This document shows positions 44,962-50,282 of a stretch of 64,000 nucleotides of DNA, in pieces. This DNA comes from Saprospiraceae bacterium. GTDB lineage: Bacteria; Bacteroidota; Bacteroidia; Chitinophagales; Saprospiraceae. A model generated the notes under the pieces. That model was not told the DNA's origin and searched no databases. It worked only from the letters and a program-made list of their open reading frames with translations. Position numbers and translations under genes: made by a program. The stretch is from contig CBDCUO010000032.1 in the NCBI GenBank assembly GCA_965222705.1, positions 116,308 through 180,307 on the forward strand, given 5' to 3'. Numbering within the stretch: the first letter of the stretch is position 1; each line of letters opens with the position of its first letter.

Positions 44962-45828
44962 ATGCGTGCATTAGTTATTACTAATACGATTACCAGGCGA
45001 GATGAAAAATCTTTGGAAAAGTACTTCAATGAAATTTCTAAATATGATGTGCTTAGCCCAGAGCAAGAGTTGGAGCTATTTCAGCGAATTAAAGCTGGAG
45101 ATAAACAAGCCATTTCACAAGTTGTGAATCACAATTTGCGCTTTGTGGTTTCTGTTTCCAAGCAATACCAGAACTTGGGCTTGGCTTTAGGAGATTTGAT
45201 CAATGAAGGCAACTTGGGCTTAATCAAAGCCGCCGAGCGCTTTGACGAAACAAAGGGCTTTAAATTCATTTCTTATGCGGTTTGGTGGATTCGTCAGTCC
45301 ATTCTTCAAGCGTTGAATGAAAAATCCAGAAAGATCAGATTGCCTCTTAATCACCAATCTAATGTTTCCAAAATCATTCAAAAGCGTACCCAATTGCTCC
45401 AGTTGAAGGAAAGAGAACCAACCTTGGAAGAACTTGCAGTAGAAACGGGTTTTTCGGAAGAAGTAGTGAAGAAAAGTTTGGAGTCTTACAAAAAGTGTCG
45501 TTCTTTGGATGCACCAATAGATGAAGATAGCGACTCTTCCTTGAGTGGCTTGATGGAAGATCATCAAATTGAACGACCAGATTTTGATTTGGCTTATAAT
45601 GAATCTATTAGTATTCAGGCAACCCAATTATTAAACTCCCTCCCAACAAGAGAGGCTTCTGTTTTAAAGTTGTTTTTTGGAATTGATAGAAAATATCCGA
45701 TGAACTTAGGTGATATTAGCGATTTGATGGGGATTAGTCGAGAGCGGGTTCGCCAGATTAAAGATAGGGGCTTGGATATGCTTCGAATGGCATCTAAAAA
45801 AATGGAGGTTGATTTTAGCCTGAACTAA
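44962..45828 (+). CDS. rpoD: Primary-type RNA polymerase sigma-70 factor (short Bacteroidota form)
   Basis: The protein is 288 aa. Region 2 reads NLRFVVSVSKQY..GDLINEGNLGLIKAAERFD..GFKFISYAVWWIRQSI. Region 4.2 reads LGDISDLMGISRERVRQIKDRGL. Confidence 0.9.
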   Translation: MRALVITNTITRRDEKSLEKYFNEISKYDVLSPEQELELFQRIKAGDKQAISQVVNHNLRFVVSVSKQYQNLGLALGDLINEGNLGLIKAAERFDETKGFKFISYAVWWIRQSILQALNEKSRKIRLPLNHQSNVSKIIQKRTQLLQLKEREPTLEELAVETGFSEEVVKKSLESYKKCRSLDAPIDEDSDSSLSGLMEDHQIERPDFDLAYNESISIQATQLLNSLPTREASVLKLFFGIDRKYPMNLGDISDLMGISRERVRQIKDRGLDMLRMASKKMEVDFSLN

Positions 45829-47753: not shown

Positions 47754-49838
47754 TCACCTTTTGAAGGTTGTTCGAACAGTTGTGTTCCAGATTTGGTTGT
47801 AAAAATCTAGCACGAGCCGGTTGGTGGTAAGCGTTCGAATAGTGTATAAATCTCCCCCAATGTTGACTATTTCTCCTTGTAGGTTATAAGTTAGAGTGGT
47901 GTGATTATAACCGTCAAATACGGTATAGGTTCCGTTTGGATAATAGGTACAATACATATCCATATTTATGCCCAAATCACTAGCAGAAACCCCATTGGCA
48001 CTAAAGTCTTGCAAATACCAGGTGCCTTGTAATAGGTCAAATTTAGTAGGTGATGGCGTATATTTTTCTTCTTCTAAGATTTTATTATCCTCTGCTGGCA
48101 AAGTTTCCGATTCTTGATAAGCCGTTTGTGGTTCAGAGCCATCTTCTACATTATTGATGACGACCACCGTAAATAAAGCAATAACCACAAAAGCTAAACC
48201 ACCTAAAAATACTGATAAACTAGATTTTTTCTTTTTGCTTACTTTTTTAGGAACTCTCTTGGTTGTTGAAGGGCGGTATTGGCCTTCCTGTAATTTTAAC
48301 TGACAACTCTTAATCCAGTCCTCCAGTTTTTTGCTAGGGCCAAATTCTTTCGCTTTTTGAAAATACTGGATAGCTAATACATAATTTTCTTCAGCATAGG
48401 CTTTTTTCCCGTCGTTGAATAATTGGATCAGTTTATCCTTTTGCTTACAGGTTTCTAGTTTTTCTTCAATATAATTTAAATCAGGAGCAAATCCCGGCAG
48501 AAAATGCTGCATACTTTGACGATAATGCGCTGCTGCTTCTGAAAACTTACGGTGCTTAAATAGTTGCTCTGCCTGATTGATGCCTTTTTTAAATAATGCT
48601 CTTTTTTCAGTGACACTTGCTTCTTGTTGTGCTTTTTGAACTGCTAGATTTTGTTTTTCTTTGATAAAAGCTTTTTCTCGATTTTGAGCGGTTTCAAAAG
48701 CTTTTATTTGATGATTAGCTTTGTCAATATACTTTCCTTCTGGATATTTTAAAGCATATTCCAAAAAGGCAGAAAGCGTATTTTTTAAATTGGCATCTTT
48801 CCAGCATGCTTCTTCTTCCACGATGGCGAGTTGCTCAACAGCCTGCTTATAATACTTTCCGTCCTTGTAATTCCGAATATAGCTGAGGTAAGCCCCCGTA
48901 GTATGTTCATTTTGGGCAAATCGCCAAATTTCTTCTTCTTTTAAAGCATGGATTCGTTTGGCAGCTCTCCGTAAAAACTGGCCGCTGGGAAAAAGCCTGG
49001 CATAATGCTCAAAGGCAGTGACGGTATTTTTTTGTTCAGCGATTGCCCATACGTCTGCCTCATCTTGTCGGGGACGAAAAATTAATTGTCCCCCTTTATG
49101 TCCTTTCACTTTTAGAGGCTCACCCCGAGGCGTTTGGTCGGCATTAGAGATAACCGCTTCAACCACTTTATTACATAATTCGGAAACGCTTAATGGTTTG
49201 ACTGCCGTTTTTAAATGATAAATCAAGCTATCTGCAAAAGGACTATTGTTGCCTGGTTTGCCGTCTAACACCAATTCTGTTCGACCGGCAGTTAGCCCCC
49301 AGCGAGATGGGTCTTTTTCTAGGCGGTTGGTTGCTCCAATACTTTTATAGGTAGCAAATAAACTACCTGAGAAACAGGAGTCCACTACCAGGAAAGTATG
49401 TTTGGAATTAATGGCATTTAGGTTATCTCGGATATCACTATTGGAAATATAATTGTGGTAGGCTCCTTGTTCGGCATTTACTGGCACCCAAAAACCCCGA
49501 TCTCTAAGTTGATCGTATTCGCCGTGGCCGGAGAAAAAAATCACTACATTATCATTATTTGTTACGGTCTGTGCCAGTTTTAAAAAAGCCTGATCTATGT
49601 TTTTTTCGGTAGCTTCTTGATCGAATAGGGTAATGATATTTTCTGATTCAAAAGCGTATTTTTCAGATAGCACTTTTATTAATTCCTTTGCATCTTTTAC
49701 GGCATTGTACAGTTTCGGGCAATGATAATAATCATTTATTGCAATGGAAAGGAGATGGTTTTTTCCCAACGGAAGGGCTTTTTTTGTCTGTTTTTCCTTT
49801 TGGAGACTGCCGAGATGACGATAATTCTGTTCAGACAT
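47754..49838 (-). CDS. Membrane-spanning caspase-family (peptidase C14) protein: caspase, helical repeats, TM, lipocalin-like domain
   Basis: The His motif is VVIFFSGHG and the Cys motif is FLVVDSCFSGS. Three ~38-aa repeats (W..A...NT..A...Y...(F/Y)P.G.Y) and a TPR-like segment follow. There is a single TM (LSVFLGGLAFVVIALFTVVVI) and a C-terminal LLQGTWYLQDF... lipocalin-like pattern. The ATG at 49838 is preferred over the TTG at 49856. Confidence 0.8.
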   Translation of the reverse strand: MSEQNYRHLGSLQKEKQTKKALPLGKNHLLSIAINDYYHCPKLYNAVKDAKELIKVLSEKYAFESENIITLFDQEATEKNIDQAFLKLAQTVTNNDNVVIFFSGHGEYDQLRDRGFWVPVNAEQGAYHNYISNSDIRDNLNAINSKHTFLVVDSCFSGSLFATYKSIGATNRLEKDPSRWGLTAGRTELVLDGKPGNNSPFADSLIYHLKTAVKPLSVSELCNKVVEAVISNADQTPRGEPLKVKGHKGGQLIFRPRQDEADVWAIAEQKNTVTAFEHYARLFPSGQFLRRAAKRIHALKEEEIWRFAQNEHTTGAYLSYIRNYKDGKYYKQAVEQLAIVEEEACWKDANLKNTLSAFLEYALKYPEGKYIDKANHQIKAFETAQNREKAFIKEKQNLAVQKAQQEASVTEKRALFKKGINQAEQLFKHRKFSEAAAHYRQSMQHFLPGFAPDLNYIEEKLETCKQKDKLIQLFNDGKKAYAEENYVLAIQYFQKAKEFGPSKKLEDWIKSCQLKLQEGQYRPSTTKRVPKKVSKKKKSSLSVFLGGLAFVVIALFTVVVINNVEDGSEPQTAYQESETLPAEDNKILEEEKYTPSPTKFDLLQGTWYLQDFSANGVSASDLGINMDMYCTYYPNGTYTVFDGYNHTTLTYNLQGEIVNIGGDLYTIRTLTTNRLVLDFYNQIWNTTVRTTFKR

Positions 49839-50282
49839 AGCTATGTTTTTTGCCAAATTTCTAAGGTTTGGGTATCTAAATTTAATTCTTTTTTTGAAAA
49901 GATGCTTTGAAAACCAACTGCCAGCTTATTGATAAGTGTTTAAAAAGGGGGTATTGTATCCTGACTTATTCACTAGTAATTTTATAGTGAAAAAGTAAAA
50001 GCTAGAAGAAGTATAAGGCAAAATTGCTGTGATTGGTATCATATTTGATTAATAATAATGTGTTTTAGCTTTTAGACCTAAACATTTAATATTCTTACCT
50101 GTATTCATTTTAGCAACTTAATCTCGCTTACAATTCTATAATATCAATCTCCGTCGTACTACTGCTTTAGGAAAAGCCAGTAATTTCCAAAGACAAATTT
50201 TATAAAGCTCATCTTCTCTAAAATTCAGAGAAAACCCTTTGTTTTTTCAAAATTTTAAGGAGCATAACCGATTTAAGCAACT

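Follow-up and report, generated by a model that had tools for sequence, protein, structure and literature searches.

Within a 64,000-nt stretch of a Saprospiraceae bacterium genome (GenBank assembly GCA_965222705.1, contig CBDCUO010000032.1, positions 116,308 to 180,307 of the forward strand; hereafter "the window", numbered from its first letter), we analyzed a gene for a 694-aa protein that carries a caspase-type (Peptidase_C14) protease domain at one end and a lipocalin-like β-barrel at the other, with helical repeats and a single membrane helix between them. The protease is predicted to lie in the cytoplasm and the barrel in the periplasm, and we hold this architecture and predicted topology with high confidence. 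Taken as a whole, the protein may be a single-pass receptor protease whose periplasmic barrel signals to the cytoplasmic caspase, a reading that we favor by a modest degree. The parts of the gene are as follows, with the evidence for each in parentheses.

47754..49838, (-): complete coding sequence for 694 aa and stop codon, from the ATG (database entry P0002 is an identical 694-aa protein)
49077..49760, (-): Peptidase_C14 domain, aa 27-254 (Pfam, alignment to Arabidopsis metacaspase-4 [AtMC4], model, Foldseek)
49524-49526, (-): catalytic His105 (aligned to AtMC4 His86)
49374-49376, (-): catalytic Cys155 (aligned to AtMC4 Cys139)
48741..49067, (-): three helical hairpins of ~42 aa each, probably BamD/YbgF-type (YfiO/TPR_6) repeats, aa 258-366 (alignment, model)
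48555..48728, (-): single 58-residue helix, aa 371-428 (model, predicted local distance difference test [pLDDT] 84-95)
48285..48545, (-): helical unit resembling a tetratricopeptide repeat (TPR), aa 432-518 (model helices 432-518; sub-threshold sequence matches)
48219..48284, (-): disordered Lys/Arg-rich juxtamembrane linker, aa 519-540 (charge count; pLDDT <50)
48150..48218, (-): single transmembrane helix, aa 541-563 (Kyte-Doolittle 2.95)
48045..48149, (-): acidic, Pro-rich disordered outer linker, aa 564-598 (charge count; low pLDDT)
47757..48044, (-): C-terminal eight-stranded, lipocalin-like β-barrel, aa 599-694 (AlphaFold2 pLDDT ~96, Foldseek)

The full-length structural model was made with AlphaFold2 and had a mean pLDDT of 83 and a predicted template modeling score (pTM) of 0.46. 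The homologue list comprised the 120 best database matches, and the domain tallies came from the precomputed Pfam column for those 120.

The protease domain

An earlier note on this DNA, written from the letters alone, had claimed an intact caspase dyad context from the motifs FFSGHG and VVDSCFSG and had recommended a search with the Pfam profile for Peptidase_C14. Both motifs are present in the translated protein, and PF00656 matched aa 30-237 over profile positions 5-221 of 233 with an E of 6e-17 (62.5 bits, against a cut-off of 21.4). The phmmer alignment to AtMC4 (6w8s) paired the SGHG and DSCFSG of our query with the enzyme's SGHG and DSCHSG; in entry 6w8r, a C139A mutant, the residue aligned to the query Cys is the mutated one. 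The earlier note had allowed that the Cys/His pair might vary among orthologues or that the fold might be non-catalytic. In an alignment of 38 full-length homologues, His105 and Cys155 were invariant, as were Asp49 and Asp153, and the SGHG and DSCxSG motifs occurred together in 118 of the 120 listed matches.

Asp49 and Asp153 are candidate acidic S1-pocket residues, at positions that we take, from the TbMCA2 structure, to belong to the pocket. Because these conserved Asp residues stand at the aligned pocket positions, and because the characterized C14 enzymes other than caspases are all Arg/Lys-specific (PMC5756287), the expected P1 preference of the domain is Arg or Lys.

In the predicted structure, aa 27-254 adopted a caspase-hemoglobinase fold at pLDDT >90. 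The best Foldseek matches of this region were to MALT1 (3v4o and 3uo8, E 2e-11 to 1.8e-10), with the isolated MALT1 domain 3v4o giving a TM-score of 0.71 at E 1.8e-10; plant, yeast and trypanosome metacaspases, caspase-11 and the Geobacter protein GSU0716 were also matched. Sequence identity to AtMC4 (6w8s), Yca1 (4f6o) and TbMCA2 (4afp) was only 12-20%. Orthocaspases in the strict sense have p20 only; here a p10-equivalent part seems to be present, with the Pfam match reaching profile position 221 of 233 and the fold reaching aa 254. A loop past the catalytic Cys (aa 165-173) was modeled at low confidence; its position 165, Lys here, is Lys or Arg in 37 of 38 homologues, and the loop could serve as a self-processing site. 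We considered membership in the EACC1-associated caspases and rejected it, given a score of 53.7 bits against the NCBIfam NF047832 cut-off of 140 and the lack of an EACC1 neighbor.

Membrane helix and predicted topology

The only hydrophobic segment that we found on the Kyte-Doolittle scale was aa 541-563. The 20 residues ahead of it contain nine Lys/Arg and no Asp/Glu, and the 20 behind it contain no Lys/Arg and seven Asp/Glu, in keeping with the basic stretch and one transmembrane helix described in the earlier note. No signal peptide was found, again as that note had it; hydropathy in the first 60 aa peaks at 0.36. Because of the +9 and -7 flanks (the positive-inside rule) together with the missing signal peptide, the caspase is predicted to be cytoplasmic and the barrel periplasmic. 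In the model, aa 519-548 are disordered and run into the membrane helix, of which residues 549-560 appear as a helix of low confidence.

The homologues displayed the same arrangement. Most of the 120 proteins on the list have one helix at the corresponding position, and 88 of the 98 with a scorable helix have more Lys/Arg on its N-side than on its C-side flank. When seven homologues were scanned, all their extra Pfam domains lay C-terminal to the helix (7/7), including TonB_C and the GldM C-terminal domain, both of which are periplasmic. The outer acidic linker differs among homologues in length and sequence. Hydropathy, charge and homologue domains thus all agree with the layout proposed in the earlier note, caspase inside and lipocalin-like domain outside, and they predict an N-in/C-out single-pass inner-membrane protein that fits the 'Metacaspase|iTMHo' definition.

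The C-terminal barrel

In the full-length model, aa 599-693 are all-β. DSSP assigned eight strands to the modeled C-terminal domain, which forms an antiparallel barrel at pLDDT ~96. Foldseek against the PDB returned Tannerella forsythia potempin E (8ehd; E 1.9e-4, TM-score 0.73 by target), together with numerous siderocalin entries and BACOVA_00364 (4gzv), a lipocalin-family protein of Bacteroides. Among AlphaFold DB clusters, most top matches are named "Lipocalin-like domain-containing protein" or lipoprotein. The named results of an ESM Atlas feature search all belong to the lipocalin clan (GH43_C, DUF5640, Lipocalin_4, Lipocalin_3 and NlpE), at scores below 0.9 that make them leads only. 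The G-x-W start motif (G605, W607) is invariant across 26 aligned C-termini. Weak, sub-threshold Lipocalin_4 matches were obtained for 12 of the 26 homologous C-termini (best E 2.6e-4), and others matched DUF5640 or the lipocalin-like GH43_C.

The lipocalin-like domain of the earlier note therefore holds as a fold, with an eight-stranded barrel and lipocalin structural matches, but the PF13648 (Lipocalin_4) search did not bear out a family assignment: the full-length protein scored 12.7 bits and the isolated domain 19.5 bits, both short of the 22.4-bit cut-off. By the alignment, the model and the structural matches, a lipocalin-like fold is supported, whereas formal Pfam Lipocalin_4 membership is not.

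A word-seeded homologue search with the barrel alone (aa 596-694), which sought other cytoplasmic modules attached to this ectodomain, returned only the protein itself because the barrel sequence is too divergent. One structural match to the barrel, AlphaFold DB cluster A0A354H131 (rank 24), is a 721-aa protein named for sigma-70 region 2; similar ectodomains may thus also be joined to sigma or anti-sigma-type transducers.

Exchange of outer domains among homologues

The earlier note had presented the protein as one of a kind. Instead, its order of caspase, single helix and outer domain recurs in most of the 120 homologues listed, with an outer domain that differs from protein to protein: Fib_succ_major in ~21, WG_beta_rep in ~20, FGE-sulfatase in ~9, and Lcl_C, GldM_4th, TonB_C and FKBP_C in a few each. 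The helix lies at about aa 290, 430-480 or 540, tracking the presence of the repeats and stalk. Judged by these sequences, the protein is a member of a large Bacteroidota (Saprospiraceae-type) family in which caspase and helix are constant and the predicted periplasmic domain is exchanged.

The nearest full-length relatives, from other metagenomes, are 49-51% identical. We found no full-length counterpart in the 15 same-genus genomes or in the 25 relatives searched; the matches in those 25 relatives covered the caspase domain, in a few cases with part of the repeats (up to ~aa 405 at most), at no more than 60% identity. Synteny across the 25 relatives could not be assessed because no full-length counterpart was found. 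That the exact architecture is missing from the same-genus genomes points to fast gain, loss and domain shuffling. Each of those genomes (G001-G015) had between 0 and 8 matches to the caspase core at E≤1e-20, a count of matches and not of gene copies. One of the listed homologues, P0106 (828 aa), carries a caspase, a helix and then a WG repeat, YfiO-type repeats and an FKBP prolyl isomerase, all past the helix, which is an unusual combination of periplasmic domains.

Helical repeats and the long helix

Between the protease domain and the membrane lie the three helical repeats that the earlier note had described as ~38 aa long. They are real, ~42 aa each, and form three helical hairpins spanning aa 260-364 in the model, with the pattern W..A...NT..Y..Y...P.G, in which W, P and A are invariant in every repeat. 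The query's own repeats had no Pfam match at E≤1. A profile built from the three hairpins of 19 homologues matched 12,764 representative proteins (clustered at 50% identity) at E≤0.001, 617 of them at E≤1e-30, often in multiple copies. Among the top matches to this profile that we scanned (n=89), 63 matched PF13525 (YfiO/BamD) and 22 matched PF13174 (TPR_6), and only 8 had a caspase domain; others had FGE-sulfatase, peptidoglycan-binding, Sel1 or TIR domains or a signal peptide. By these matches, the three hairpins appear to belong to a general TPR module of the BamD/YbgF type. Thousands of unrelated proteins carry this module, on either side of the membrane, and it is not specific to caspases. 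It is most simply read as a protein-docking surface. The ~42-aa repeat (W..A...NT..Y..YL..P.G) also occurs in arrays, in which as many as 12 stretches of a single protein matched (P0122-P0271), and Pfam recognizes it as YfiO/TPR_6 only in the many-copy proteins, not in the caspase protein.

For the two segments that follow, the earlier note had proposed a long coiled coil and a TPR-like unit. A single 58-residue helix is indeed present in the model, but its best heptad register has hydrophobic residues at 11 of 17 a/d positions, which is suggestive only, so that the helix may form a coiled coil or a dimerizing stalk. The TPR-like unit likewise has helices in the model over aa 432-518, although its sequence matches are all sub-threshold (TPR_1, E 0.19; BamD TIGR03302, E 8e-4; designed TPR proteins, E 0.006).

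Gene neighborhood and paralogues in the genome

The gene is encoded on the minus strand, a point missing from the earlier note. A TTG at 49856 would provide an alternative upstream start and add 6 aa; the database gene call and the homologues agree with the ATG, which is therefore the favored start. The genome is an assembly of 5.77 Mb in 57 contigs. The gene was present in four sequencing runs, all from one study, none of which was shown to be RNA.

As the earlier note had reported, the flanks are a sugar porter and a type IX secretion system (T9SS) adhesin. The sugar porter gene, of the major facilitator superfamily, is convergent with the caspase gene. The adhesin, a CHU_C/T9SS giant protein of 2316 aa, belongs to an adhesin/PorP/OmpA operon that is divergent from the caspase gene and starts 444 bp from its ATG, across the following spacer.

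49839-50282: spacer between the caspase ATG and the adhesin gene, 444 bp, AT-rich

We found no effector, NTPase sensor or other defense gene next to the caspase gene, and its neighbors include no gasdermin-like or other obvious substrate gene, in line with the earlier note. The Pfam Gasdermin model gave 0 matches in the whole genome; control genomes were equally silent, which makes this result uninformative. The earlier note had also suggested looking for conserved neighbors. At two related loci, those of the nearest full-length relatives (P0003 and P0005), the neighbors differ, comprising RecR and dTDP-sugar genes at one and Uma2, a TPR protein and FtsH at the other, and no neighbor is shared among the window and these two loci. 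A link to the sigma-70 gene at 44962-45828 was considered and set aside: this gene encodes a four-region RpoD-type factor and lies two genes away, and no sigma gene stands beside the relatives in the two loci.

The same genome (G000) has eight C14 genes of unlike architectures. Three of them are the caspase-barrel gene, a shorter caspase with a helix, and a soluble caspase with WG repeats (L007). The others are listed here.

L004:820-2220, contig C16 of G000, (-): caspase with effector-associated domain 11 (EAD11)
L012:1528-4839, contig C16 of G000, (-): 1103-aa caspase with a C-terminal alpha/beta-hydrolase (DUF7379/DUF676-like)
L002:787-2208, L003:625-2202 and L008:964-3018: exported paralogues, two with signal peptide, MORN and caspase and one with signal peptide, cadherin-like domain, caspase and Fib_succ_major

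Given the exported paralogues, this one genome would place caspase domains in the cytoplasm as well as beyond the inner membrane. The 1103-aa caspase-hydrolase protein resembles protease-licensed hydrolase death effectors (bioRxiv 10.1101/2025.11.14.688446), and the joining of a caspase to EAD11 is an adaptor architecture typical of NTP-dependent conflict systems (Kaur et al. 2020).

Proposed mechanism and alternative explanations

Reading the protein as an outside sensor coupled to an inside protease is plausible. The periplasmic barrel would bind a small hydrophobic molecule or a protein as its ligand, and the helical stalk would carry the resulting change in oligomeric state across the membrane. 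This signaling step across the membrane is possible, and we give it slightly less than even weight. The caspase domain would then be activated by induced proximity, as happens to MALT1 (a paracaspase) and the initiator caspases, which are activated by dimerization or induced proximity. Once active, the protease would cleave after Arg or Lys in cytoplasmic targets docked by the TPR repeats, with those targets encoded away from the gene's own neighborhood; the enzyme might also process itself, either in the loop with the conserved K/R165 or within the Lys-rich linker next to the membrane. The function could be the one-component death or stress switch suggested in the earlier note, or the outcome could be ordinary regulation.

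Several points weigh against the receptor-protease reading. The topology derives from hydrophobicity and charge rules and not from a dedicated predictor or experiment, and the geometry between domains in the model is uncertain (pTM 0.46). The barrel falls under the Pfam Lipocalin_4 threshold. In the window and the two related loci, we found no ligand, substrate or conserved partner gene, and no neighbor is conserved across the three. At least one homologue, P0106, has TPR repeats on the predicted periplasmic side. Finally, L007 joins the same caspase type to WG repeats with no membrane helix, and because of this soluble paralogue, membrane spanning is not obligatory in the family.

That soluble paralogue also fits a membrane-localized housekeeping or processing protease, whose helix and barrel anchor or position the enzyme at the envelope, perhaps close to a partner in the periplasm or outer membrane, while no signal crosses. 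Small barrels of the Lipocalin_4 type are common in Bacteroidota lipoproteins, where they have unknown, often structural, roles, and potempin E, the nearest match with a solved structure, is an inhibitor that binds proteins and not a small-molecule sensor. However, a lone helix would be enough for anchoring, and a constant cytoplasmic core combined with many different ligand-binding ectodomains is what one sees in receptor families and not in anchors, so we consider a housekeeping role rather improbable. Export of the caspase to the periplasm, or a non-catalytic scaffold, would explain the protein in yet another way. Exported C14 paralogues do occur in this genome (the MORN and the cadherin-like + Fib_succ_major types), and dyad substitutions are given for a share of prokaryotic homologues in the account of PMC3501461 found in PMC5756287. 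We regard both variants as very improbable: the absence of a signal peptide (hydropathy ≤0.36 in the first 60 aa), a folded N-terminal region of 540 aa with no export signal and the nine positive charges strongly disfavor export, and the catalytic pair and both pocket Asp residues are invariant in the 38 homologues.

The protein might instead be an abortive-infection or conflict-system death effector, that is, an anti-phage executioner whose ectodomain senses attack on the envelope, likened to the caspases that license gasdermins, EACC1, Pepco or hydrolase toxins. Consistent with this, the protein matched the PADLOC "caspase" model (E 2.7e-16), the family is patchy with fast turnover (0 of 15 same-genus genomes had a full-length counterpart), and the eight C14 genes of the genome include the caspase + EAD11 and caspase + alpha/beta-hydrolase types (PMC7159879; bioRxiv 10.1101/2025.11.14.688446). 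Yet the PADLOC match is confined to the caspase part (profile positions 2-182 of 453), the EACC1-associated model reached only 53.7 of the 140 bits required, and the adjoining genes are a sugar porter and a T9SS operon rather than an effector, NTPase sensor or defense gene, with different neighbors in the two related loci. Known protease-effector modules, moreover, rely on cytoplasmic sensors. A conflict-system effector therefore appears unlikely to us.

Extending the receptor-protease reading to the family would give a bacterial class of single-pass "receptor caspases", in which a cytoplasmic Arg/Lys protease is clustered by exchangeable periplasmic binders (lipocalin-like, C-type-lectin/FGE, Fib_succ_major or WG repeats). 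We offer this broader idea tentatively and think it doubtful. If it were true, Bacteroidota would have an outside-in signaling or death pathway that works by proteolysis and not by phosphorylation, a prokaryotic counterpart of death-receptor-to-caspase coupling within one polypeptide. A relay of envelope signals through a caspase-type protease would add a proteolytic route to transmembrane signaling in bacteria and would bear on the origin of receptor-to-caspase coupling. The family is a clean modular test case, offering a single gene, no partners and a wealth of natural ectodomain swaps. If the protease does only local housekeeping, the outcome is an ordinary refinement of the annotation "caspase family protein".

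Comparison with known systems

The idea of coupling an outside receptor to a metacaspase in the cytoplasm is not new: it was proposed in silico for cyanobacteria in 2012 and 2018 (PMC3501461; PMC5756287). Asplund-Samuelsson et al. 2012 (PMC3501461) cataloged prokaryotic metacaspases with membrane helices, among them the Trichodesmium metacaspase-CHASE2 protein, with its receptor domain outside and its metacaspase free in the cytoplasm, and counted 28 metacaspase genes in Haliscomenobacter hydrossis, a member of the Saprospiraceae. A Baltic Sea survey reported 'Metacaspase|iTMHo' architectures (PMC4933709), and Klemencic and Funk considered Microcystis MaOC6 to be probably a transmembrane protein whose receptor domain lies in the periplasm (PMC5756287). 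Our literature searches returned nothing relevant on a caspase or metacaspase with a lipocalin, nor on Peptidase_C14 with Saprospiraceae, and a search on membrane-anchored bacterial caspases gave unrelated papers. The literature that we found treats membrane-spanning bacterial caspase homologues only in silico.

Like the transmembrane orthocaspases metacaspase-CHASE2 and MaOC6, our protein has an N-terminal C14 domain predicted inside, a helix and a C-terminal extracytoplasmic putative receptor. Unlike the cyanobacterial orthocaspases, it belongs to a Bacteroidota-type family and carries a lipocalin-like barrel in place of CHASE2 or FGE-sulfatase; metacaspase-CHASE2 has four helices flanking CHASE2, whereas here there is one helix with a long cytoplasmic TPR/helical stalk. 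With MaOC1 of Microcystis aeruginosa, AtMC4, Yca1 and TbMCA2, it shares the C14 fold, the His/Cys motifs and the pocket Asp. MaOC1 and the type I/II metacaspases are, however, soluble and only 12-20% identical. The fold also resembles that of MALT1, an Arg-specific, dimerization-activated signaling protease downstream of receptors; MALT1 is eukaryotic and soluble and is recruited via death and Ig domains and the CBM complex. This likeness is one of fold and working logic and does not amount to family membership.

The barrel resembles Lipocalin_4 barrels (PF13648; 4gzv) and potempin E (8ehd), which are small eight-stranded up-and-down barrels with G-x-W from the Bacteroidota envelope. Those proteins are free-standing lipoproteins and inhibitors, whereas here a helix links the barrel to a cytoplasmic protease, and the sequence score of the barrel stays under the family threshold. 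Constant cytoplasmic output with swappable ligand-binding domains recalls the single-pass receptor Ser/Thr kinases (kinase-FGE-sulfatase, PASTA), although the output here is a protease. Exchangeable ligand-binding domains are likewise a feature of the kinase-CLec and orthocaspase-CLec proteins of cyanobacteria that are diversified by diversity-generating retroelements (PMC7517822); most cyanobacterial targets of these retroelements are predicted to be cytosolic (PMC7517822). Three things set our case apart from these known systems: its lipocalin-like ectodomain, its long TPR/helix stalk in the cytoplasm and the extent to which this Bacteroidota subfamily exchanges ectodomains.

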